Positions 1,516 through 16,950 of a stretch of 34,099 bases of DNA are shown piece after piece. The position numbers and the translations under genes were made by a program. Under the pieces are notes generated by a model that did not search any database, had not been told where the DNA came from, and worked only from the letters and a program-made list of their open reading frames with translations. Source of the DNA: Myxococcota bacterium (lineage in GTDB: Bacteria; Myxococcota_A; UBA9160; DASRUS01); assembly GCA_039714895.1 (NCBI GenBank), contig JBDLIK010000001.1, positions 1-34,099 on the forward strand, read 5' to 3'. How positions within the stretch are numbered: position 1 is the stretch's first letter; each line of letters begins with the position of its first letter.

Positions 1516-1728
1516 TCAGCCGATCTTGGCGCGAGCCTTGTCGATGTCGCCGTCCATGATGGTCTTGCGCCGCTCGGCGAGAGCCGAAGCCTGCGCCTCG
1601 TGCGCGAGTCTCGCGATGTACTCCTCAGCTGCCAGAACCGCTCGCTCGAGGGCCGCACCGGAGACCCGAAGTCCCTCACTGTGCTTCCCCAGGAGCCTCT
1701 TCACCACTGCGTTGGGAAGGTCACCCAT
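1516..1728 (-). CDS. Histone-fold DNA-binding protein, singlet, 70 aa (archaeal HMf-like / bacterial histone)
   Basis: Internal ATG at 1728 within ORF 1516..1965, with AGGAG 6 nt upstream. The product is MGDLPNAVVKRLLGKHSEGLRVSGAALERAVLAAEEYIARLAHEAQASALAERRKTIMDGDIDKARAKIG. By eye it aligns along its full length with archaeal histone HMfB as I recall it: LP near the N-terminus, RVS, EE, EA, RKTI, DI. The upstream 79 codons of the long ORF are S/P/R-rich and look non-coding. Confidence 0.7.
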   Translation of the reverse strand: MGDLPNAVVKRLLGKHSEGLRVSGAALERAVLAAEEYIARLAHEAQASALAERRKTIMDGDIDKARAKIG

Positions 1729-1774
1729 GGAAATCTCCTCTCCCCCCGGGTCTGCGCCATGGTAGCGCAGCGGC

Positions 1775-1803
1775 TTTATTCCCGAAGCCGGAGCGCTTGT
1801 CAA
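1775..1803 (-). promoter_or_regulatory. Candidate sigma70-type promoter for the histone-fold gene
   Basis: On the minus strand: TTGACA (1803-1798), a 17-nt spacer, then AATAAA (1780-1775). It sits in a locally AT-rich intergenic stretch about 45 nt upstream of the ATG at 1728. A second -10-like TATACT lies at 1831-1826 without a good -35. Confidence 0.3.
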
Positions 1804-1852
1804 CGCGCCCCAGGAGCTGAGTGGGAGTATAAACCCACACACTGATGCGGCT

Positions 1853-3034
1853 CTACTCGGGGAGCTCCGCTCGGGCCTGATCCTCAGCGTGGCGCACCAC
1901 CTCGCGCAGGGGGACCCCCGAACGCCGGGCGATCCGCTTGCAGTCGTCGTACTCGGCGGAGACATCCACCCGTCCGTCCGGACGCCGGACGACCTTGACG
2001 GCCACCATCCCCTGCGGGGTCCGGATGCGGTGGGTCTTCCGGGGCAGCACGATCCGCTCGCACTCGCTCACACGAAGTCCCAGGGTCGAGGTCTCGGTGA
2101 GCAACACCGCCGCCAGCTCCGTGCGCCGCGCCGGCGGCGCGAGCACCCGCACCTCGAAGCCCGGACGGTTCTTCTTCATCTGGAGGGGATGCAAGGAAAC
2201 GTCGAGAGCGCCGGCCTCGAAGAGCCGCTCCATGACGTGGTCGAAGTGCTCGGGCACCAGGTCGTCGAGGTTCGCCTCCAGGCTGACGACGCGGTCGGCC
2301 TGCCAGGCTTCGTCGCGGCCGAGCACCGCGCGCAGGACGTTGGGCATCGGGCTCTCGCGGTCGTCGCCGGCACCGTGCCCGACGGCCAGGATGGTCATGG
2401 CGGGCAGCGGCCCGAAGGAGCCTGCGACCTCCCGCAGGATCGCCGCGCCGGTGGGCGTGACGGTCTCGAAGGCGACGTGGGCCGGAGCCGTCGGGATGCC
2501 GCGCAGCAGCTCCAGGGTGGCCGGGGCGGGCAGGGGCAGGCGGCCGTGGGCGGTCTCCACGGTGCCCTCCCCCAGCGCTACCGGCGAGGCGCTCACCCGC
2601 TCGATGCCCAGGCGGTAGAGGGCGCTGGCCGCTCCCACCACGTCCACGATGGCGTCCACCGCGCCCACCTCGTGGAAGTGGACGCGCTCGGGATCGATCC
2701 CATGCACGCGCCCCTCGGCCACCGCCAGTCCCTCGAAGATGCGCAGGGCCCGCTCGCGCACCGGCTCCGGAAGCCTGGCCCGCTCGATGAGGCGCCGGAT
2801 CTCAGACCAATGGCGCCCGTGCCGCTTGCTGCTACCGGATGCCTTTCGCGGCACCTGCACGCGCACGTAGCGGGCGGCCAGCGCACCCCGCCGCACGCGG
2901 CTCACCCGCAGAGCGTGGTCGAGACCGAGTCCGGCCAGGTCCTGCTGGAGCTGGCGGCGGGACAGACCGAGATCGAGCAGGGCACCGAGGAACATGTTCC
3001 CGGCGATGCCCGAGAAGGTGTCCAGGTGGAGCAC
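1853..3034 (-). CDS. larC: Nickel insertion protein LarC (pyridinium-3,5-bisthiocarboxylic acid mononucleotide nickel chelatase, DUF111 family)
   Basis: ORF 1853..3163. From the GTG at 3034 the product starts (M)LHLDTFSGIAGNMFLGALLDLG, which matches the usual LarC N-terminus. Family-typical HFHEVGAVDAIVD and TPTGAAIL motifs are present. The ATG at 3163 would add 43 R/S-rich residues and overlap larB by 29 nt, so the start is uncertain. Confidence 0.85.
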   Translation of the reverse strand: MLHLDTFSGIAGNMFLGALLDLGLSRRQLQQDLAGLGLDHALRVSRVRRGALAARYVRVQVPRKASGSSKRHGRHWSEIRRLIERARLPEPVRERALRIFEGLAVAEGRVHGIDPERVHFHEVGAVDAIVDVVGAASALYRLGIERVSASPVALGEGTVETAHGRLPLPAPATLELLRGIPTAPAHVAFETVTPTGAAILREVAGSFGPLPAMTILAVGHGAGDDRESPMPNVLRAVLGRDEAWQADRVVSLEANLDDLVPEHFDHVMERLFEAGALDVSLHPLQMKKNRPGFEVRVLAPPARRTELAAVLLTETSTLGLRVSECERIVLPRKTHRIRTPQGMVAVKVVRRPDGRVDVSAEYDDCKRIARRSGVPLREVVRHAEDQARAELPE

Positions 3035-3134
3035 GCGCGCGCCGGCGGCGGGGACGCTCCCGCGCCGGCTAGCTGCGGTCCCGCTCCGCGAGACCTTCCG
3101 CGTCGTCGGCCGACCCGAGACACGGGTCGGCCTC

Positions 3135-3884
3135 CTAGATCCGGTTGATGAGCGTCGCGACATAGGCCGCCCCGAAGCCGTTGTCGATGTTCACCACCGT
3201 CACGTTCGAGGCGCAGCTGGTGAGCATCCCCAGCAGGGCGGCGATGCCGGAGAAGGCGGCCCCATAGCCGACGCTGGTGGGCACCGCGATCACGGGCTTG
3301 TCGACGAGGCCCCCCACCACCGACGGAAGTGCGCCTTCCATCCCGGCCACCACGATCAGCACCCGGGCCGAACGCAGCACCTCGCTCTCGGAGAGCAGGC
3401 GGTGGATGCCGGCCACCCCCACGTCCTGCAGGACCTCCACCCGATTGCCGAGCAGGCGCGCCACGGCCGACGCCTCGGCCGCCACCGGCCAGTCCGAGGT
3501 TCCCGCGGAGACCACCGCGATCATTCCCTTCCCCTGCAGGCGGGGGCTCGCGGGGCCGAACCAGAGCAGCCGGGCCTCGGCGTCGTGCAAGCCCTCGCCG
3601 AGCTCGAGGAGTACGGCCCGGGCCGCCTCCGCCTCGATGCGGGTGACGAGCACCTCCTGGGAGGCGTCCCGGAGGACGCGCACGATGGAAACCACCTGGT
3701 CCGGGCGCTTGCCGGCGGCGAAGACCACCTCGGGGATGCCGTGGCGGAGTGCGCGATGCGTGTCCACGCGCGCGTGGGGCGTGTCCACGAAGGGCGGCCG
3801 CGCAATGCGCTCGACCGCCTCTTCGGCGCTCGTCTCGCCCTTGTGGACGGATTCGAGGAGGGTTTGCAGCCGTTCCCGATCCAC
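3135..3884 (-). CDS. larB: LarB, pyridinium-3,5-biscarboxylic acid mononucleotide synthase (PurE/AIR-carboxylase-like)
   Basis: This is the C-terminal 249 codons of ORF 3135..4367: AGTSDWPVAAEA, DVGVAGIHRL, AGMEGALPSVVGG, VPTSVGYGA, VVNIDNGFGAA. The first in-frame starts downstream of the cheC-like stop (3997) are TTG at 3893 and GTG at 3884. The upstream part of the long ORF overlaps the cheC-like gene in another frame and is P/S/R/W-rich. Confidence 0.85.
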   Translation of the reverse strand: MDRERLQTLLESVHKGETSAEEAVERIARPPFVDTPHARVDTHRALRHGIPEVVFAAGKRPDQVVSIVRVLRDASQEVLVTRIEAEAARAVLLELGEGLHDAEARLLWFGPASPRLQGKGMIAVVSAGTSDWPVAAEASAVARLLGNRVEVLQDVGVAGIHRLLSESEVLRSARVLIVVAGMEGALPSVVGGLVDKPVIAVPTSVGYGAAFSGIAALLGMLTSCASNVTVVNIDNGFGAAYVATLINRI

Positions 3885-3903
3885 GGCGGCCAACGCTATC
3901 AGG

Positions 3904-3996: not shown

Positions 3997-4545
3997 TCAG
4001 CAGTCGGGGATGAAGACGAGGCGGCCGTGGAGCTCCCCCTCCTCGTCGGCGATCTCGGTCTCCACGAGCAGCCGAGCCGCACCCCGACGGGCGGCGTGCT
4101 CCAGGAGGGCGGCCTCGCCATCGCCTTGGACCAGCACCGGCAGGGAGGGCACGAGTCGGGCCCCGGTGGTATCCGCGATGGCGGAGCATACGTGGGAGAC
4201 GACGATGTTTCCGAGCTCCCGGATCGCCGACTCCCCCAGCTCACGGGAGACGGATTCCTCGGGCCCCACCAGGCGCCTGACCAGGGCCGCGGCGGCGTCC
4301 GCCGGCAACACCAGGGCCACCACGCCCTGGAGCGCCCCGTCCACCTCGAAGAGCACCGCGGTGGCACGCCGCTTGCGGGGCACCGACGTCGATGGAGAGT
4401 CGAGCTTGCGCACCTGGGGAACCCGCATCCAGAACGTGCGCCCGACGACGTCGGCGAAGGCGCCCGCCGCGTGCCCCGCTCCGATGCTGATCAGCTCGAG
4501 CAGACGGTCGATCGGCTGCGACTGCATTCCCGTGCACTCCCTCAT
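3997..4545 (-). CDS. CheC/CheX-family CheY-P phosphatase-like protein
   Basis: 182-aa ORF whose ATG overlaps the cheA stop (ATGA at 4542-4545). The second CheC active-site motif is intact: S-x3-E-x2-N-x22-P in SAIRELGNIVV...LVPSLP. The first motif is D-x3-E-x2-S-x22-P (DRLLELIS...MRVP), so Asn is replaced by Ser. Confidence 0.7.
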   Translation of the reverse strand: MRECTGMQSQPIDRLLELISIGAGHAAGAFADVVGRTFWMRVPQVRKLDSPSTSVPRKRRATAVLFEVDGALQGVVALVLPADAAAALVRRLVGPEESVSRELGESAIRELGNIVVSHVCSAIADTTGARLVPSLPVLVQGDGEAALLEHAARRGAARLLVETEIADEEGELHGRLVFIPDC

Positions 4546-5708
4546 GCGAGCTGGTTCAGGTCGAGCAGGAAGATCGGGCGCCCATCCCCCAGCACGGTGA
4601 GCCCGGCCAGGACCCGCAGCCCCCCGAGCAGCGCCGGCACCGGCTTCACATAGATCTCCTGTTGTCCCTCGAGACGCTGGACGCGCAGGCCGATGCGTTC
4701 ACCGCGCACCTCGGCCAGCACCAGGGGAACCGGATGGCCCTCGGGCTGCGCGGCGAGTCCGAGCCGCTCGCCGAGCTCGAGAACCAGCACGGGCACCTCG
4801 TCCACCAATGCGAAGCTCTCGTTCCCGGCCCGCTCCACCGCCGCCGGCTCGACCTCGACGATCCGCTCCACCTTGCCGATGGGGAGCGCCACCGTCGCCG
4901 CACCGAGGCCCACGAGCAGCACGCGCTGGATGGCGGCGGTGATCGGCACGACGAGGGAGGTGCGGGTGCCGAGCCCCGGCCGGGACTCGAGCTCCACGCG
5001 CCCACCCAGGGATTCGATGGTGGCCTTCACGGCGTCCATGCCCACGCCCCGCCCGGAGATCTCCGACACCGTGCCCCGGGTCGAGAGCCCAGGCCGGAAG
5101 ACCAGCGCTGCGATCTCCTGGGGGGGCAGGTCCTCGGCCAGGTCTCGGTGGACCAGGCCCGCCTCCACCGCCCGGGCCCGCACGCCCTCGAGGTCGAGAC
5201 CCGCCCCGTCGTCTTCGACGCAGACGCGAATCGAGTCCTTCTCTCGCCGTGCCCGCACATGAACCCGTCCAGCCTCGGGCTTGCCGGCCTCGCGCCGCAG
5301 CCCGGGAGGCTCGAGGCCGTGGTCGACGGCGTTGCGCAGCAGGTGCACGAGGGGGTCCGAGAGCCGATCGAGGATCGATCGGTCGAGCTCCAGCTCCGCC
5401 CCCTGCAGCTCCACCTCCACCCGCTTGCCCAGCTTCCGTCCCAGCTCGCGCCCCACTCTCGGCAGCTGCTCCATCACCCGCAAGAGCGGCGCCGTGCGCA
5501 GGTGCAGGGCCCGTCGCTGGAGATCGCCAACCACCCGGTCCATCCGGTCGAAGCCGGTGGCGAGCTGGGCCGAGCGCTCGATGCGCGAGCCGTCGGCCAC
5601 GGTGCGCAGCTGGCTCGCCGAGAGGATCACCTCGCCCACCGACGACAGGAAGCGATCGAGGGTGTCCGTGCGCACCCGCACCGAAGGGGACGGCGCCGGG
5701 GCCTCCAC
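4542..5708 (-). CDS. cheA: CheA histidine kinase core (P3 dimerisation, P4 HATPase, P5 CheW-like). It is in a different frame from the P1 domain
   Basis: This is the C-terminal part of ORF 4542..6740: VRVRTDTLDRFLSSVGEVIL (P3), HLLRNAVDHGLE (N box), DDGAGLD (G1), GRGVGMD (G2), then a CheW-like tail. The GTG at 5708 is the first plausible independent start, 14 nt after the P1-frame stop. The upstream part of the 732-aa ORF is R/G/P-rich and overlaps cheY and cheW out of frame. Confidence 0.8.
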   Translation of the reverse strand: MEAPAPSPSVRVRTDTLDRFLSSVGEVILSASQLRTVADGSRIERSAQLATGFDRMDRVVGDLQRRALHLRTAPLLRVMEQLPRVGRELGRKLGKRVEVELQGAELELDRSILDRLSDPLVHLLRNAVDHGLEPPGLRREAGKPEAGRVHVRARREKDSIRVCVEDDGAGLDLEGVRARAVEAGLVHRDLAEDLPPQEIAALVFRPGLSTRGTVSEISGRGVGMDAVKATIESLGGRVELESRPGLGTRTSLVVPITAAIQRVLLVGLGAATVALPIGKVERIVEVEPAAVERAGNESFALVDEVPVLVLELGERLGLAAQPEGHPVPLVLAEVRGERIGLRVQRLEGQQEIYVKPVPALLGGLRVLAGLTVLGDGRPIFLLDLNQLA

Positions 5709-5722
5709 CCGTCGAGACGGGG

Positions 5723-6139
5723 TCAGCTCCGGCGACGTGATTTTTTTGAGGGCTCCTCCGCCTGCTTCGAAGCGCCGGAGGCGAGGGCGGCCGCGAGACC
5801 CCCATCGAGATGAGGGCCCTCGCCGTGGTTGCGCACGTGAGCCACCATCCCCTCGAGTCCCTCGAGTCCGCGGAACAGGAGGTCGAGCCCCGCAGGATCG
5901 ATGCGCCCGGCCGTGCGGCAGGCGTCCATGCGGTCCTCGAGTCGGTGGGACACCTCGGTGATGGCGTCGTAGCCCAGCGACGCCGCCATCCCCTTGATGG
6001 AGTGGGCCATGCGGAAGACCCGGTCGATTGCGTCGGCGCAGTCGGCGGTCTTCTCGAGCTCGAGCAGGGCCCGGCTCATCTCGGCCAGGTGCTCGGTGGC
6101 CTCTTCCAGGAAGAGGTTCCGGTACTTCGTGAGGTCCAA
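5723..6139 (-). CDS. cheA: CheA P1 (Hpt) phosphotransfer domain, encoded as a separate 138-aa ORF
   Basis: MDLTKYRNLFLEEATEHLAEM...FRMAHSIKGMAASLGY carries the phospho-His box HSIKG. The TTG start at 6139 follows directly after the cheY stop. The ORF ends ...EEPSKKSRRRS at TGA 5723-5725, just past the A7 run. Confidence 0.8.
   Translation of the reverse strand: MDLTKYRNLFLEEATEHLAEMSRALLELEKTADCADAIDRVFRMAHSIKGMAASLGYDAITEVSHRLEDRMDACRTAGRIDPAGLDLLFRGLEGLEGMVAHVRNHGEGPHLDGGLAAALASGASKQAEEPSKKSRRRS
5741..5747 (-). other. A7 homopolymer (T7 on the plus strand) at the cheA frame junction; a perfect A_AAA_AAA heptamer in the P1 frame
   Basis: The minus strand reads ccc tca aaa aaa tca cgt ... 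tga in the P1 frame and gcc ctc aaa aaa atc acg in the kinase frame. One extra A would fuse the two frames. Confidence 0.9.
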
Positions 6140-6511
6140 TCAGGCCTCCTTCTCGACCACCTTGTTGAGCGTGGAGAGCACCGCGTCCGGCTTGAAGGGC
6201 TTCACGATGAAGTCCTGGGCACCCGCCTGCAGGGCCTCCATCACCAGCGACTCCTGACCGAGGGCGCTGCACATCACGATGCGCGCCTGCGGAGCCTTCG
6301 ACACGATTTCCTTCACCGCGTCGATCCCCGAGCAGCGCGGCATCACGATGTCCATCATGACGAGGTCCGGCAGGAGCTCGTGGTAGGACTCCACCACCTC
6401 GACGCCGTCCGTCGCCTCGCCCACCACCTCGAAGCCTTCCGGCTCGATGATCTCCCGGATCATCTGACGCATGAAGGCCGCGTCGTCCGCGACGAGCACT
6501 CGAAAGCTCAT
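6140..6511 (-). CDS. cheY: Chemotaxis response regulator CheY
   Basis: 123 aa, a single receiver domain: VLVADDAAFMR, VMMDIVMP, CSALG, FIVKPF. There is an ATGA overlap with the cheW stop, and GGAGGG lies upstream. Confidence 0.95.
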   Translation of the reverse strand: MSFRVLVADDAAFMRQMIREIIEPEGFEVVGEATDGVEVVESYHELLPDLVMMDIVMPRCSGIDAVKEIVSKAPQARIVMCSALGQESLVMEALQAGAQDFIVKPFKPDAVLSTLNKVVEKEA

Positions 6512-8308: not shown

Positions 8309-9274
8309 CTAGAAGTGGCGCCAGCCGGAGGTGCGGGGCTGGAGCCAGCCCGAGGCGGTCCGCACCCGCAACCCCCTGGGGGTGACCACGCCGACCTGGG
8401 CGACCGGAGCCCCCAGGCGTCGTGCCAGCGTCACCCCCGAGGGCCCTCGCGGCCGCAGGGTGAACAGCAGCTCGTAGTCCTCTCCCCCGGCCAGCAACAG
8501 CCGGGCCGGATCGAGCCCCAGCTCCAGACAGGCCTGGGGGAAGCCCCGCGGCCGCGGCACGCGACCCAGGTCCAGGTCCGCGCCCACGCCCGAGGCCGTG
8601 AGCACGTGGCCCAGGTCGGCCAACAGGCCGTCGGAGACGTCGATGCAGGCCCCGACGCTGGCCAGGCCCCCAAGTGCGCGGCCCGCGGCGATCCGGGACT
8701 CGGGAACACTCCGGATCCGGCCCCGACGCCGCTCCGCCCGGGCACGCTCGAGCGCCGAACGCCCCAGGACTCCGGTGACGAGGATGCGGTCCCCGCTCCG
8801 CGCGCGGCTGCGCGAGAGCGCCCGCCGGGATGCCACACTCCCGGCGGCGGTGACCGAGAACGAGGTCCGGTCCGCCCGGGCGACGTTGCCTCCCACCAGA
8901 GGGCAGCCGAGGCGTCGGCCGTCGTCGACGAGGCCCCGCACGGCTCCGAGCAGCCGAGCCACCGGCAGCGCCGGTGGGACCTGAACCGACAGCAGGCAGC
9001 CGCGCGCCCGAGCCCCGGTGGCCGCCAGGTCCGAGAGGCTCGCCGCCAGCAGACGTCGACCCAGCACCCGCGGCGGCATGCTGCGCCAGCGGAAGTGCAC
9101 GTCCTCCACCATCGCGTCGGTGGTGAGCACCAGATCCTCTCCGGCGCGAGCGCGAAGGATCGCGGCGTCCTCCCCGATGCCCCGGGCCACCCAGCGCGCA
9201 GCCGCCTCTCCGGGCTGGGCGAGGCGCGCGATGCGCTCGATCAGTCCGAACTCTCCCACGTCCCGCACCCGCAT
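8309..9274 (-). CDS. thiL: Thiamine-monophosphate kinase ThiL
   Basis: 321 aa: [61 protein letters not shown] (AIR-synthase-related fold, ThiL pattern). Confidence 0.9.
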
Positions 9275-9414: not shown

Positions 9415-11811
9415 TCAACGAGCGACGACTCGGGCGGGACGCGGGGGACGCGAGGACGGTGCCGTGCTGGCACGCGGCAAGCGGGCTGTCAACGCCGCCT
9501 CGAGCACCTCGTCCATGTGGCGGACGGGCACGAGGCGCACCCGACGCTTGAGCTCCTGGGGCACCTCATCGAGGTCGGCGAGGTTTCGATGCGGGAGGAT
9601 CACGGTGCGGATCCCAGCGCGCAGGGCGGCGAGCGCCTTCTCACGCACGCCCCCGACGGCCAGCACGCGCCCACGCAGGGTGATCTCGCCGGTCATCGCG
9701 ACGTCCGGCCGCACGGCGACCCCGGTGGCCAGGGATACCAGGGCGGTGGCGATGGCTACGCCCGCCGAGGGCCCGTCCTTCGGAATGGCGCCCGCCGGAA
9801 TGTGGAGATGGACCTGGTGGCGAGAGAACACCGAGTCGTCGAGTCCGAGCTCGCACAGACGCCAGAGGACGAAGGTGTGGGCCGCATGGCCGGACTCCTT
9901 CATCACGTCTCCGAGCTGGCCGGTGAGCACCAGGCCGCGACCCCGCGTGAGGGCGGCCTCCAGGCGCAGCACTTCTCCCCCGGCCTCGGTCCAGGCGAGG
10001 CCGTGGGTGGCGCCCACCTCCCCCACCCGCGGCAGGTCTTCGCTGACGTGATGCGGGGGGCCCAGGTAGGTGCCGAGGTTCCGCTGGCTCACCGAGAAGC
10101 CGCTCTCGTCCCCTTCCGCGGCCCGGCGCGCGACCTTGCGGCACACCGCGGCGATCTGCCTCTCGAGATTCCGCACCCCGGCCTCGTGGGTGTAGTCGGT
10201 CACCGCGCGACGGACGGCCGCACAGGACCAGCGGATGCGCGACGGCTGGAGTCCGTTCTCCTGGATCTGGCGGGGGATCAGGAAGGAACGCGCGATCTCG
10301 ATCTTCTCCTCCGGCGTGTAGCCCGAGAGCCGGATCACCTCCATGCGGTCCTGCAGCGGCCGGGGGATCGGATCGAGCAGGTTCGCGGTGGCGATGAAGA
10401 AGACCCCGGAGAGGTCGAAGGGGACGTTGAGGAAGTGATCGCTGAAGCGCGCGTTCTGCTCGGGATCCAGCACCTCGAGGAGCGCTGCCGAGGGGTCGCC
10501 GCGGAAGTCGCTGCCGATCTTGTCGATCTCGTCGAGCATGAAGACCGGATTGCAGGTTCCCGCCTGCTTGAGCCCCTGGATGATCCGGCCGGGCATGGCT
10601 CCCACATAGGTGCGCCGATGGCCGCGGATCTCGGCCTCGTCGCGGACCCCGCCCAGCGAGATGCGAACGAACTCGCGCCCCATGGCCCGGGCGATGGAGC
10701 GCCCCAGGGAGGTCTTGCCCACGCCCGGGGGCCCCACGAAGCAGAGGATGGGACCCTTGGAATCGGAGCGCAGCTTTCGCACCCCGAGGAACTCGAGGAT
10801 GCGGTCCTTGATGCCCGAGAGGTGAGCGTGGTCGCCGTCCAGGATGGTCCGCGCGTTCTTGAGGTCGAGCCGATCCGGCGAGGTGCGAGCCCAGGGCAGC
10901 TCCACCACCCAGTCGAGATAGCCGCGCACCACCTGGGCCTCGGGCCCATCGGGGTGCATGCGCTCCAGGCGGCGCAGCTGCCGCAGCGCTTCGGCCTGCG
11001 CCTCCTCGGGCAACGCCGCCTCCTCGATCTTGAGGCGGTACTCGTCGAGCTCCTCGACCCGGGGGTCCACCTCGCCGAGCTCGACCTGGATGGCCCGAAG
11101 CTGCTCACGAAGGAAGTGCTCGCGCTGTCCGCGCGTCATCTCCTCCTTGGCCTGGGACTGGATCTGCGCCTGCACGCTGCTCACCTCGAGCTCGCGGCGC
11201 AGGACGGCGTCCACCCGGCGCAGACGCGCGATGGGCTCGAGGGTCTCCAGCACTTCCTGGGCATCCGCCAGGCGGAGCCGCAGATGCGAGGCCACCAGGT
11301 CCGCCAGGCGGCCGGGCTCCTCGACGTTCGCGGTCACCGAGATCACCTCGGGCGGCAGGTTCTTGAGGGGCAGGAGCTCCTCCACCCGGCCTCGCACCGT
11401 GCGCATCAGCGCTTCGGCCTCGACGCACCATTCGTGATCCTCGTCTGCGGGCAGGGCCGAGACCCGGCCCCAGGAGCTCGGCTCCTGGTCGACGAAGCTC
11501 TCGATGCGCGCCTTGGTGAGGCCCTGCACCAACGCCTTCACGCGGCCATCGGGAAGGCGCAAGGTGCGCATGACCATGGCCACCGTGCCCACTCGATAGA
11601 GGTCATCCGGTCCGGGCTCTTCGATCTCCGGATTGCGTTGGGCGACGAGGAGCAGCAGGCGGTCCGAGGAGAGTGCGTCTTCGAGGGCGGCGATGGATCG
11701 CGCGCGACCGACGAAGAGCGGCACCACCATGTACGGAAAGACGACCAGCTCCCGCAGTGGAAGCAGCGGCAGCTCGTCGGGAACTTCGAAGCCCGCGTCC
11801 TCTTGAGTCAC
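9415..11811 (-). CDS. lon: ATP-dependent protease Lon (endopeptidase La)
   Basis: ORF 9415..12081 trimmed to the GTG at 11811, giving (M)TQEDAGFEVPDELPLLPLRELVVFPYMVVPLFVGR. It has Walker A GPPGVGKTS and the protease motif PKDGPSAG. A TTG at 11865 is an alternative start. Codons further upstream overlap the lipoprotein gene. Confidence 0.95.
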   Translation of the reverse strand: MTQEDAGFEVPDELPLLPLRELVVFPYMVVPLFVGRARSIAALEDALSSDRLLLLVAQRNPEIEEPGPDDLYRVGTVAMVMRTLRLPDGRVKALVQGLTKARIESFVDQEPSSWGRVSALPADEDHEWCVEAEALMRTVRGRVEELLPLKNLPPEVISVTANVEEPGRLADLVASHLRLRLADAQEVLETLEPIARLRRVDAVLRRELEVSSVQAQIQSQAKEEMTRGQREHFLREQLRAIQVELGEVDPRVEELDEYRLKIEEAALPEEAQAEALRQLRRLERMHPDGPEAQVVRGYLDWVVELPWARTSPDRLDLKNARTILDGDHAHLSGIKDRILEFLGVRKLRSDSKGPILCFVGPPGVGKTSLGRSIARAMGREFVRISLGGVRDEAEIRGHRRTYVGAMPGRIIQGLKQAGTCNPVFMLDEIDKIGSDFRGDPSAALLEVLDPEQNARFSDHFLNVPFDLSGVFFIATANLLDPIPRPLQDRMEVIRLSGYTPEEKIEIARSFLIPRQIQENGLQPSRIRWSCAAVRRAVTDYTHEAGVRNLERQIAAVCRKVARRAAEGDESGFSVSQRNLGTYLGPPHHVSEDLPRVGEVGATHGLAWTEAGGEVLRLEAALTRGRGLVLTGQLGDVMKESGHAAHTFVLWRLCELGLDDSVFSRHQVHLHIPAGAIPKDGPSAGVAIATALVSLATGVAVRPDVAMTGEITLRGRVLAVGGVREKALAALRAGIRTVILPHRNLADLDEVPQELKRRVRLVPVRHMDEVLEAALTARLPRASTAPSSRPPRPARVVAR

Positions 11812-11915
11812 CGGTCGTGTTTCGACGCGGCGACTCGACGACTTGAGCCAACGCCCGGTGCGCAATTGCCAACTCGCCGACGGACGGCGTAGCGTCCGAG
11901 CGACGGGGAGAGCGG

Positions 11916-13982
11916 CTACTGAAGGGTGGTGATGGTGCCGCCCTCGACCACGAGAAGGTGGGGGCGTCTCACCGCGTTGCCATCGTTGTCGATGGAGAAG
12001 ACGCCCGAGGCGCCCGCCTGGTTGTCGAGACCCAGCAGCCCCTCCTGCACCTCTTCCCGCGAGTCCGACCCGTCGATCCACTGGGCGAGGACCAGCGCGG
12101 CGGCGTCGTAGGCCTGGGCTGCGAAGCCGTCGGGTGCCCTGCCGAAGGTGGCCTGGAAGCGTCGGGCGAAGTCCTCGTGGAAGGGATGTCCCCCCGCGCC
12201 CGCCAGGGCAGCGGTGAACACCGCTCCCTCCACGTGCTTCTGGCCGATCCGCACGAGATCCGGGTGGTTCCAGCCGTTGGTGCCGAACAGCGTCACCCCC
12301 GTCACACCGTGGAACGCCAGCTGGGGAGCGATCAGCACCACGTTCTCGTGCGAGTCCGGCACGAAGAGCACGTCGAAGTCCACCACGGGCGGCAGCGGAC
12401 TGCCGTCAGGAGCCACCAGCGCCGCCGCCTCCTCTCGAAGCTTGCGGGCCTTCTCGGGCTGGAAGCGCCTGGCGCGGGCGAGCAGCCGGTCGCGCTGGGC
12501 GATGATCGCCTTCTCCTCCGGAGTGAGGAAGCCGAAGCCCACCAGCTGTCGGATGGCCTGGGAGAAGTCCGTGGCGTCCGGGTCGTAGCTGGCCACCCCC
12601 ACGACCTCGCCGCCCTGCTCCTCCACCGCGTCCCAGAAGAGCGCGCGGAGGGTGCGTCCGTAGCGATCGCGCGGATACAGGATCGCGCAGCGCCGCGCGC
12701 CCTGGTCCAGGGCATGCTGGGCCAGCAGGCGCGCCTCGTCCTCGGGTGCCAATCCCAGGCGGAACTCCCAGCGGTTGTCGCCGGAATCCGGGACCCGGCG
12801 GGACAGGGCCAGCAGCGGCACCCCCTCCTGGCGCGCGGCCCCCGCCGCGCCCTCGGTTTCGCGCAGCGCCAGGGGACCCACGATGGCCGTCACGTCGTCG
12901 TCCCGGGCCAGATCGAGGACGGCCCGTTCGGCCCCGGCGGCGCTGCTCTGGGTGTCGCGCACCCGCACGCGGAGCCCGGCCGGTCCGGAGGAAGCGTCGG
13001 CATCCAGGATGCCGGTGGCCAGCAGGATTCCCTGGAGTGACTCCTCGCCGAAGGACGCGTAGTCGCCCGAGAGGGGCAAGGCGACCCCGAGCACGCCCTG
13101 GGCGCGGCTCGGATCCGATACGAGGGGACGCCGGAGATCGGCGAAGGCCGGCGGCAGGGAGAAGGTGGGCTCGGGCTGACGCAGGCCCAGCCGCACCTCG
13201 AGCGCCCGCAGGCGATCCTCGTCCGCCGGGCGGGTGGGAAGACCGCGCGCCTGGCGCAGCTCGTCCCGCGCTCCGTCGAGATCGCCCCCACCCACCAGCA
13301 TCTCCACGAGCCGCAGCCGCAACCGCATCGAGATCGCGCCGTCCCGGAGCTGCTCCGCCGAGCGTGCCAGCTGGGTGCGGCGCATGCGGTCCACCACGCC
13401 GTCGATCTCGGCGTCCACCGCCTGCCGCTCCTCGTCATCGGGAGCATGCTCGTAGAGCTGGGAGAGCCAGAAGAGCTGGGTGACCGGGTCGCCGGTCTCC
13501 CCCGCCAGGTCCGCCAGCAGACGCTCCACCCGGAGGCGGTCGGTCTTCGAGAGACGGGAGAGCTGGATGGCCCCGGCCGTGCGCCGCGCGGCCTCGGGCT
13601 GCCCCGCCGCGCGCTGGAGCCCGGCCAGCCGGTAGCGCGCCTTGTCGGTCTGATCGCCGGGCGGCAGGGTCTCCGTCACCTGCAGCAGGACGCGCTGGGC
13701 GCCCGCCTTGTCACCCTGCTCGAGCAGGATGGCCGCCAGCGTCACCCCCGCGTCGTCCGCCAACGGGCTGCGGGGCCAGGTGGAGAGAAAGCGCTCGAGC
13801 ACGGCGATGGCTCCGGCGGGATCGGTCTCCTGGATCGCCAGGGCCTGGCGGTAGGCCTGACGCTCCTCCTGGCGAGCCCGCCCCGGCCCCAGGGCCGACT
13901 GACAGCTCACCAGCACCAGCAGCGCGAGCCAGGCAAGAGCCGCCGCACCCCCCACGGTCCGTCGCTCAGTCGAAGAGATCAC
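11916..13982 (-). CDS. Lipoprotein with an N-terminal TPR-like region and a C-terminal type-I periplasmic-binding-fold (LpoA/LppC- or Leu/Ile/Val-binding-like) domain
   Basis: 688 aa. The signal peptide carries a lipobox (LLVLVSC). A helical repeat region follows, and the C-terminal half has periplasmic-binding-protein features ([32 protein letters not shown]). It overlaps the dnaJ stop by 17 nt. Confidence 0.75.
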
Positions 13983-15087
13983 GCAACTTCTCCAGGAAGC
14001 CCCGGGTCACCGGGGAGACCTCGTTTCCGCTCTCGAGCGCGAACTGCTCGAGGAGCTCTCGTTGACGATCCGTCAGCTTGGTGGGGATCTCGACGAAGAT
14101 GCGCACGAAGTGGTCGCCGCGGTGGGTGGCGCCGAGGGTGGGGAACCCGCGACCGCGCAGCCGGATGACCTTGCCCGACTGCGTGCCCTCGGCGATGCGC
14201 ACGCCGACCTTTCCCTCCAACGTGGGGACCTCGACCTCCGCGCCCAGGGCGGCCTGGTAGAACGGGATCGGAACCTCGCAGTGGATGTCGGAGCCGTCCC
14301 GCTCGAAGAGGGGATGGGGCGGCACGCTGACCACGACGTAGAGATCTCCCGGCGGCCCTCCCGAGATGCCCGCCTCGCCCTCGCCGGCCAACCGCAGGCG
14401 CATGCCATCCTCCACCCCGGCCGGCACCCGGACCCGGATGGTCTGCTGGCCCTGGGTGCGTCCGGCGCCGCGGCAGTCGGGGCAACGATCGGGAACCACC
14501 TCGCCCTCCCCGCCGCAGGCATCACAGGGACGGCTGATGCGGAAGAAGCCCTGCTGCAGCACCATCTGGCCCGTGCCGCGACAGCGCTCGCAGAGCCGCG
14601 GCGAGGTGCCCGGGCGTGCACCGGAGCCGCTGCAGGTTTCGCAGGGGCGCATCTTCGGGATCTCGATGCGGACGTCGACACCCTCGAGCACCTGGGCGAA
14701 CTCGATCTCGAGGTTGTATCGGAGATCGGCCCCGCGCTGGCCGCGGCCGCGCCGACGCGCGCCCGGGCGGGCGCCGCCGAAGAGGTCCCCGAACAGGTCG
14801 TTGAAGAGGTCGCCGAAGTTTCCGAGATCGCCGAAGTCCTGGAATCCGCCGGGGCCGCCGGCTCCCACGCCGTCGAACCCGAAGCGATCGTAGGCGCGAC
14901 GCTTCTCGGGATCCGAGAGCACGGCGTAGGCCTCCGAGGCTTCCTTGAAGCGGTCCTCGGCCTTCGGATCGTCCGGATTCCGGTCCGGGTGGAACTGGAG
15001 CGCGAGCCGGCGGTAGGCCGTCTTGAGCTCGTCGTCGTCGGAGCTCCGGGAGACCCCGAGGATCTCGTAATAATCGCGCTTCGCCAA
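13966..15087 (-). CDS. dnaJ: Molecular chaperone DnaJ
   Basis: J-domain (DYYEILGV ... HPDRN), a G/F region and four CxxCxGxG zinc-finger repeats. Confidence 0.95.

Positions 15088-15126: not shown

Positions 15127-16950
<1,824 letters not shown>

Follow-up and report, generated by a model that had tools for sequence, protein, structure and literature searches.

The window analyzed here, i.e., the whole stretch of 34,099 nucleotides (nt) of contig JBDLIK010000001.1 from a Myxococcota bacterium, harbors a chemosensory operon whose cheA gene, encoding the signalling kinase, is laid out in two reading frames meeting at a short run of A residues. The order of the operon is AIRS-domain gene, MCP, CheW, CheY, CheA, CheC/X, LarB-like and LarC; its other junctions are coupled, and the overlaps of 0–4 nt described in an earlier reading of this DNA made from the sequence alone (hereafter, the sequence-only reading) were found in place. 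The gene immediately upstream of cheA, in the same order in all relatives, is that of the response regulator CheY (6140..6511, minus strand; Pfam PF00072), and downstream a gene for a CheC/CheX-like phosphatase (3997..4545, minus strand; PF04509, PF13690) overlaps the cheA stop by 4 nt.

The first part of cheA is an open reading frame (ORF) at 5723..6139 (minus strand), which starts from a TTG at 6139 directly after the cheY stop and encodes 138 amino acids (aa), ~15.0 kDa. It comprises the Hpt (P1) domain (5831..6124, minus strand, residues 6–103; PF01627, E 4e-15) with the phospho-accepting His46 within the motif FRMAHSIKG, a linker of ~28 aa and, past the A-run, a five-residue tail, SRRRS. 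The second part, which occupies the −1 frame relative to the P1 ORF and ends at 4542, is the kinase core. It carries, in order and all on the minus strand, the P3 dimerisation domain (5505..5684, residues 153–212 of the fused protein; PF02895, E 3.5e-7), the P4 ATP-binding kinase domain (4941..5357, residues 262–400; PF02518, E 1.1e-14) and the P5 CheW-like receptor-coupling domain (4548..4922, residues 407–531; PF01584, E 9.2e-18), joined to P1 only via a −1 shift. In the public annotation, the core from a GTG at 5681 to 4542 is the 379-aa protein P0001, named “chemotaxis protein CheW”, and the P1 ORF is a separate protein, P0121, named “Hpt domain-containing protein”; hence, the operon seems to lack CheA in the public record.

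The P1 and kinase frames cross at a run of seven A residues (A7; 5741–5747 on the minus strand, T7 on the plus strand), around which the minus strand reads gcg gag gag ccc tcA AAA AAA tca cgt cgc cgg agc TGA. Read in frame with P1, these residues form A_AAA_AAA, i.e., a heptamer of the X_XXY_YYZ type in the zero-frame phase (tcA AAA AAA tca), which is the proposed −1 shift site. If A5741 is re-read, or if one A is added, the reading continues as ...EEPSKK-ITSPELTPSRRVEAPAPSPSVRVRTDTL..., yielding a continuous protein of 532 aa (57.3 kDa). Its −1-frame part (4542..5741, minus strand, with the stop at 4542–4544) consists of the linker ITSPELTPSRRVEAPAPSPS followed by P3-P4-P5. The fusion displays the Pfam domains Hpt (6–103), H-kinase_dim (153–212), HATPase_c (262–400) and CheW (407–531), and P2 is absent. 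Without a shift, five sense codons are followed by a TGA as the sixth (5723–5725, minus strand, 15 nt past the run). The sequence and the ORFs thus bear out what the sequence-only reading had stated about the crossing point, the phase of the heptamer, the continuous P2-less CheA attainable by a −1 slip or an extra A, and the end of the unshifted P1 six codons on.

The composition of the run sets it apart from its surroundings. The sequence-only reading had marked it as the longest A/T homopolymer noticed within coding sequence; it is, moreover, the sole A or T homopolymer of at least 6 in all 34,099 bases, with about 0.1 runs of at least 7 expected in the window from base composition. Among the 40 Lys codons counted in seven operon genes, 38 are AAG, and the two AAA codons both lie within the run. 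The run is flanked by a Shine–Dalgarno-like GGAGGAG (5753..5759, minus strand), located 5 nt upstream of the heptamer and also coding for Glu-Glu, and by a downstream stem-loop (5690..5738, minus strand) of ~20 base pairs (bp), interrupted, with a strong helix CGCCGG/CCGGCG beginning 6 nt past the heptamer and a 3-bp extension from +3. The zero-frame stop resides inside this stem-loop.

The comparative evidence comes from the DNA of close relatives (L001–L007) and from scans of metagenomes and genomes, which gave 22 further out-of-frame loci, so that the out-of-frame set comprises 30 loci including the window, or 24 distinct sequences. An alignment query of a genome collection was saturated by general CheA motifs and gave three family members, two of them with the junction; the remaining matches served as in-frame controls. 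All 24 distinct out-of-frame loci, with identities of 56–81% in P1 and 63–90% in the core, possess an A7–A10 run in the same phase, with its 3' end on a zero-frame codon boundary, and the −1 relation between P1 and the core. The zero-frame stop follows the run by 1–5 codons in nearly all of the out-of-frame relatives. The junctions in the closest lineages read cct cAA AAA AAA gca (A8; L001–L004), cgA AAA AAA gcc (A7; L005/L006) and ccA AAA AAA AAA gtg (A10; L007), each of them needing a −1 shift and each with a TGA exactly 15 nt past the run. The out-of-frame runs are never shorter than 7, and A7, the minimum for X_XXY_YYZ, is the commonest length.

The same picture emerged from protein searches. 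The nearest homologues of the fused protein (81–83% identical, ~14 clusters from JGI and Logan) were all called as cores of 377–379 aa without P1, and the full-length in-frame homologues are at most 69% identical to it. With the P1 ORF as the query, the best 120 clusters (60–99% identical, on contigs up to 897 kb) were all stand-alone Hpt proteins of 133–172 aa, 119 of which end 0–35 aa past a KK (95) or KKK (24); upon clustering at 50%, the same ending was found in 21 of the 29 short P1 representatives examined (42–72% identical). In the controls, i.e., 75 unrelated cheA loci with a P1 match from the same genome scan, no stop occurred between P1 and the core (75/75), and the two parts shared the frame in 74 loci, L058 being the one apparent exception. 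When 119 cores were placed on a tree, the out-of-frame state made up a single large clade, and the changes of state numbered ~6 overall. The comparison of orthologous loci for run length and frame, which the sequence-only reading had proposed, hence revealed an A-run and a −1 relation kept across a deep clade; orthologs with a clean stop, a ribosome-binding site and a start between two genes and no A-run, which that reading would have taken for a sign of a plain split gene, were not seen. Well over 100 related genes of uncultured Myxococcota have retained this out-of-frame A-run, so that a programmed −1 frameshift is considered very probable.

Homopolymers are error-prone on some sequencing platforms and the window stems from a metagenome-assembled genome, so the split could in principle reflect an assembly or sequencing error (the true run being A8), or else a recent inactivating mutation turning cheA into a pseudogene. 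This explanation is hardly credible given that the nearest relatives share the identical layout, as do more than 100 clusters of independent projects, including both short-read and long-contig assemblies (JGI, ENA, Logan, NCBI), and that the closest lineages all have their zero-frame stop at +15. Comparisons with the relatives also gave ratios of nonsynonymous to synonymous substitution rates (dN/dS) of 0.08–0.44 for P1 and 0.11–0.29 for the core at dS of 0.5–2.2; both parts are under purifying selection, which speaks against a pseudogene, and the dS values imply that synonymous sites have turned over while the run persisted. Outside of the linker, AAA makes up 10% of the Lys codons in the family. 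The more specific candidate of a homopolymer miscall in the window was rejected on the grounds of the independent assemblies, the frame-keeping changes in run length and the lack of any in-frame allele more than 69% identical. As a separate observation, one locus (L013, 2501–3634) displays an internal stop codon in the kinase core; a pseudogene and an assembly error are both conceivable, and the locus was left out of the protein alignment.

The gene callers and the public annotation, which both give two genes, are compatible with a true split kinase. According to this explanation, translation of the core would begin, through coupling or re-initiation, at an internal GTG (5708 or 5681), and the core would phosphorylate P1 in trans, in the manner of the split CheA3/CheA4 of Rhodobacter sphaeroides, which works in trans (PMC3591291). 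In-frame GTG codons are indeed present in the window at 5708, 5681 and 5675, the first of them 14 nt past the stop and in the kinase frame, as the sequence-only reading had noted. However, the GTG codons chosen by annotators are the Val codons of a conserved SVRVRT motif, which is present in the in-frame homologues too, and a Shine–Dalgarno sequence almost never precedes the candidate GTG starts in the linkers. In five loci (L010, L011, L020, L026 and L029) there is no in-frame ATG, GTG or TTG at all between the run and P3. The 24 distinct linkers from the run to P3 (VRVRT) come in 12 lengths ranging from 56 to 176 nt, all of which equal 2 mod 3, and all 24 are open, i.e., lack a stop, in the kinase frame. 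Such a regularity indicates a coding-frame constraint, since an untranslated spacer would not be bound in this way. In addition, the peptide encoded past the run in the kinase frame, KK-S/I/T-x-P-E/D-L..., resembles the KKK-S/R/T-P/A-E-P of the in-frame homologues. Judging from these sequences, the linker is translated from the run in the −1 frame. The split-kinase explanation also leaves without account the −1 relation in every out-of-frame locus, the conservation of AAA, and the A9–A11 runs with −1-frame stops in the in-frame relatives described below; overall, it is regarded as improbable.

The in-frame homologues (509–574 aa) share the P1-P3-P4-P5 architecture of the fused protein, and KKK occurs in the linker of 39 of the 95 full-length homologues with a recognisable P3 motif. 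In all seven in-frame KKK homologues whose DNA was examined, KKK is encoded by an A9–A11 run, e.g., tcg AAA AAA AAA Agc, and the −1 frame is closed by a stop 2–10 codons past the run, at no more than 2 codons in five of the seven. The distance to this stop falls in the lowest 1–3% of the −1-frame background of each gene, and nothing comparable is seen in the +1 frame. Two members of the family lack the run and are in frame. From these sequences, it appears that standard decoding in the in-frame relatives would yield CheA and a −1 shift would yield P1 alone, the roles of the two decoding modes being swapped relative to the clade of the window.

The coexistence of in-frame and out-of-frame alleles in one family, with the ~6 changes of state on the tree and the known mutability of homopolymer tracts, could also speak for a phase-variable contingency locus, where replication slippage would toggle the full-length CheA on and off in the population. 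This is very unlikely: the states are clade-specific and stable at dS above 0.5, near-identical strains from separate samples have one run length per group (L001–L004; L005/L006), and no in-frame allele was found among the ~14 clusters 81–83% identical to the window. The changes in run length (A7, A8, A9, A10) arose by substitutions or by whole codons (±3), thus leaving the frame unchanged. The sole case of a ±1 change, which would fit phase variation, is that of L057 (2412–2420; CAWHTE010000001.1, an 875-kb contig), where an A9 run is out of frame within a clade otherwise featuring A10 and in frame. Since this contig looks like a long-read assembly, an inference in itself, the L057 allele is probably a homopolymer miscall or a very recent mutation.

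With error, gene splitting and phase variation weighed, the conserved site argues strongly for programmed −1 recoding at the cheA A-run, whether ribosomal or transcriptional. Of the three readings considered in the sequence-only reading, recoding is thus the one that stood, the run, its phase, the −1 relation and the nearby stop all being conserved; the miscall fell, and the plain split gene is disfavoured. As to the agent of the shift, programmed −1 ribosomal frameshifting at A_AAA_AAA (5741–5747, minus strand) seems somewhat more probable than not; of the two candidates, ribosome and RNA polymerase, the former is the likelier one judging from sequence features.

The features in question include the structure downstream of the run. 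In the window, the stem-loop has a minimum free energy of −30.7 kcal/mol (z −3.12; 1 of 200 shuffles as stable) at a spacer of ~6 nt, and none of the 50-nt control windows tested in cheA is as stable. Across the out-of-frame loci, the 55 nt downstream of the run are more stable than their dinucleotide shuffles (median z −1.17, Wilcoxon p 5e-4, n=21, relatedness uncorrected). A structure beginning 5–9 nt downstream is present in the window and in L008, L009, L011, L016, L017 and L027, and is weak or 13 nt off in others; in one subclade, a 9-bp downstream hairpin shows covariation in 3 of its 9 pairs. The in-frame A9–A11 alleles lack excess downstream structure (mean z −0.40; one-sided p = 0.07 versus the out-of-frame alleles). 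Upstream, a GGAGG- or GGGGG-like motif is found 1–9 nt from the run in ~15 of the 24 distinct out-of-frame loci, and the GGAGGAG of the window is a possible 5' stimulator, a role suggested by its sequence. No enrichment of a 5' hairpin abutting the run was seen in the family (upstream mean z −0.39). Rfam gave no match at the gathering threshold in the whole window and only chance-level matches at E ≤ 10 around the site. An unusual arrangement is displayed by L008 (2389–2451), where a 19-bp perfect hairpin (−51 kcal/mol, z −8) begins 7 nt past an A8 run, an ATG in the kinase frame is located at the run, and the zero frame continues for 33 codons without an immediate stop; this layout is common to a small group of stand-alone Hpt proteins with tails of 32–35 aa.

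The same features bear on transcriptional slippage, in which RNA polymerase would add one A in a part of the mRNAs (A7 to A8), giving rise to CheA, and the unslipped mRNAs would encode P1 alone. The downstream RNA structure enriched in the out-of-frame alleles cannot act on the polymerase, by which it is yet to be transcribed at the moment of slipping, and the hairpin next to the run that marks stem-loop-stimulated slippage is missing on the 5' side. The window and most of the out-of-frame relatives have only 7–8 A residues, below the ~9 associated with efficient context-free slippage, and the lengths stop exactly at 7, the minimum of the ribosomal heptamer. A slippage site would be marked by a tract of about 9 or more A/T or by a 5' hairpin next to a shorter run; the window has A7, no enriched upstream hairpin was seen, and the length was reached only in the in-frame relatives. 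It is in these relatives that the case for polymerase slippage is best: all of them have A9–A11, the length of efficient, mostly base-adding slippage (PMC5009743), their −1-frame stop fits the insertion of one A, and their downstream regions are without excess structure. High-GC bacteria probably also have separate tRNA-Lys for AAA and AAG, which was argued to favour slippage in Thermus dnaX (PMC5009743), and the lack of structural conservation between subclades, together with some long spacers (e.g., 13 nt), would be compatible with slippage as a contributor. On balance, transcriptional slippage as the source of CheA in the window is possible but rather doubtful.

Several points weigh against ribosomal frameshifting as proposed for the window. 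A single consensus downstream structure was sought across the subclades and none was found, the linkers being too diverged and each subclade having its own hairpin. Many of the downstream z-scores are weak (−0.2 to −1.4), and a GC-rich composition by itself makes linkers fold well; the covarying hairpin of one subclade begins 13 nt past the run, beyond the usual 5–9 nt. The Shine–Dalgarno-like motif lies 1–9 nt from the site as compared with ~10 nt in dnaX, and it codes for Glu-Glu or Gly-Gly as well. Common descent could account for part of the constancy in the phase of the run. The in-frame runs of A9 and longer exceed what the ribosome needs; transcriptional slippage may therefore be at work in those relatives and could play some part in the window, and the trans-frame CheA itself is a product predicted from sequence.

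Under ribosomal frameshifting, the following course of events is envisaged. Unshifted ribosomes, expected to be the majority, would add five more codons and stop at the TGA (5725–5723), releasing a free 15-kDa P1/Hpt phosphotransfer domain. A fraction of ribosomes, presumably a set one, would slip back by one base, with both tRNA-Lys re-pairing from AAA to AAA; the stem-loop ~6 nt downstream probably aids the slip, and the GGAGGAG 5 nt upstream may do so as well. The shifted ribosomes would then cross the linker into P3-P4-P5, synthesizing the 57-kDa P2-less CheA with a predicted junction peptide ...EEPSKKITSPELTPSR / ...QAEEPSKKITSPELTPSR. One gene would in this way supply the kinase together with a surplus of its phospho-accepting domain. 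Free P1 could be phosphorylated in trans by the kinase core and could hand the phosphate on to CheY. By analogy, such a role is plausible because, in R. sphaeroides, P1 and the catalytic core are situated on separate polypeptides and CheA3 has its P1 phosphorylated in trans by CheA4 (PMC3591291). There are differences: CheA3 and CheA4 are encoded by separate genes without a frame change, and CheA3 also has P5, which the predicted free P1 lacks.

By its mechanism, the site groups with the recoding in dnaX, the OrfAB of the IS3 type and copA, and it bears no sequence relation to any of them. The resemblance to dnaX includes an A-rich Lys-Lys heptamer, an upstream Shine–Dalgarno-like element, a stem-loop ~6 nt downstream and products sharing the N-terminus. 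A single-base change in dnaX can reverse which of the products needs the shift, and some bacteria have the reversed layout with a stop directly after the site (PMC5009743); the direct and the reversed layouts likewise both exist within the cheA family. The differences from dnaX reside in the gene and the pathway, in the heptamer (A_AAA_AAA rather than A_AAA_AAG) and in the distance of the Shine–Dalgarno-like motif (5 nt rather than ~10 nt). Among insertion sequences (IS), the A_AAA_AAA cluster represents a proven case of −1 frameshifting stimulated by a stem-loop (PMC4066793). As in OrfA/OrfAB of the IS3 family (IS911, IS150, the A_AAA_AAA cluster), the zero frame of cheA ends soon past the heptamer, and a −1 shift joins an upstream domain ORF to a catalytic ORF; unlike these mobile elements, cheA is part of a conserved chromosomal operon and has a signalling function.

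In the documented cases of transcriptional slippage (dnaX of Thermus thermophilus, IS elements, Shigella genes), an A-run within a gene similarly leads to two proteins, and the in-frame A9–A11 runs of the cheA family have the usual length (PMC5009743). The window has only A7, however. In Thermus dnaX, moreover, both alternative frames are closed by a stop close by, as against the −1 frame alone in the cheA family. In Escherichia coli copA, a −1 frameshift frees the N-terminal domain, CopA(Z), as a small protein working with the full-length one (PMC5009743). This logic also applies to the in-frame cheA relatives, whereas in the window the small domain is the default product, the shift leads to the long protein, and the slippery site is another one. 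Two CheA isoforms, CheA-L and CheA-S, which differ in P1, originate from the single cheA gene of E. coli. They result from alternative in-frame initiation and not from a change of frame.

Apart from the site itself, the gene neighborhood displays several conserved peculiarities. The AIRS-domain gene (8309–9274, minus strand) is always found upstream of the che operon, and the genes for LarB-like/AIRC (3135–3893, minus strand) and LarC/Ni_insertion (1853–3163, minus strand) proteins always downstream, in the frameshifted and the in-frame relatives alike, which constitutes a conserved linkage of a chemosensory module with nickel-pincer cofactor genes. A small protein with a histone fold (PF00808/PF00125) is encoded directly downstream of larC (1516–1965, minus strand), and its gene is kept at the same place in L001 (7793–8068), L005 (4396–4608) and L007 (4045–4257). 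Because of this conserved position, a bacterial histone-like gene appears to be linked to the che/Lar cluster. Genes for Lon protease, DnaJ and DnaK are located upstream of the che cluster (9415–12081, 13966–15087 and 15127–16950, all on the minus strand). Toward the end of the window, the G+C content drops from ~0.72 to ~0.60 across the last 3 kb (31–34 kb), and no tRNA genes were detected in the 34,099 bases.

As far as we know, only a few cellular genes of bacteria have a conserved programmed frameshift, among them prfB, dnaX, copA and, from the carboxysome, csoS2. Full-text literature searches, whose coverage left out most subscription-journal papers, returned no report of recoding in cheA or in any chemotaxis gene. 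Likewise, cheA, chemotaxis and histidine kinases are not mentioned in the accessible portions of the GeneTack analysis and two of its supplementary files, nor in those of a 2016 review on recoding and a 2025 preprint on frameshifting. If the proposed mechanism holds true, it would be the first recoding event known to us in the bacterial chemosensory pathway and would add a signalling kinase to the recoded cellular genes. The comparative support for such a case is unusually rich, with more than 100 clusters and both layouts in one family. The history of this family with its two layouts is the most unusual feature; the family also provides a natural series in which ribosomal and transcriptional slippage could be told apart.

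Taken more broadly, the data can be accommodated in a scheme to which we would give an even chance: the uncultured Myxococcota may possess a class of P2-less CheA where a poly-A recoding site in the P1–P3 linker sets the ratio of free Hpt to kinase. The layouts would have switched several times between a dnaX-like state, in frame with A9–A11, where the shift truncates the protein, and out-of-frame A7, where it completes the protein; the mechanism may have moved from polymerase slippage to ribosomal frameshifting, with the free P1 serving as a diffusible phospho-carrier or a buffer for the array. At present, reconstructions of the pathway in these Myxococcota miss a complete CheA because its genes are called as an orphan Hpt protein and as CheW or a truncated CheA. 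If the recoding is real, the ratio of P1 to the kinase would be tunable from one gene, and some chemosensory arrays would run on a deliberately made pool of free P1, which bears on the throughput of phosphotransfer and on the tuning of kinase stoichiometry without P2.

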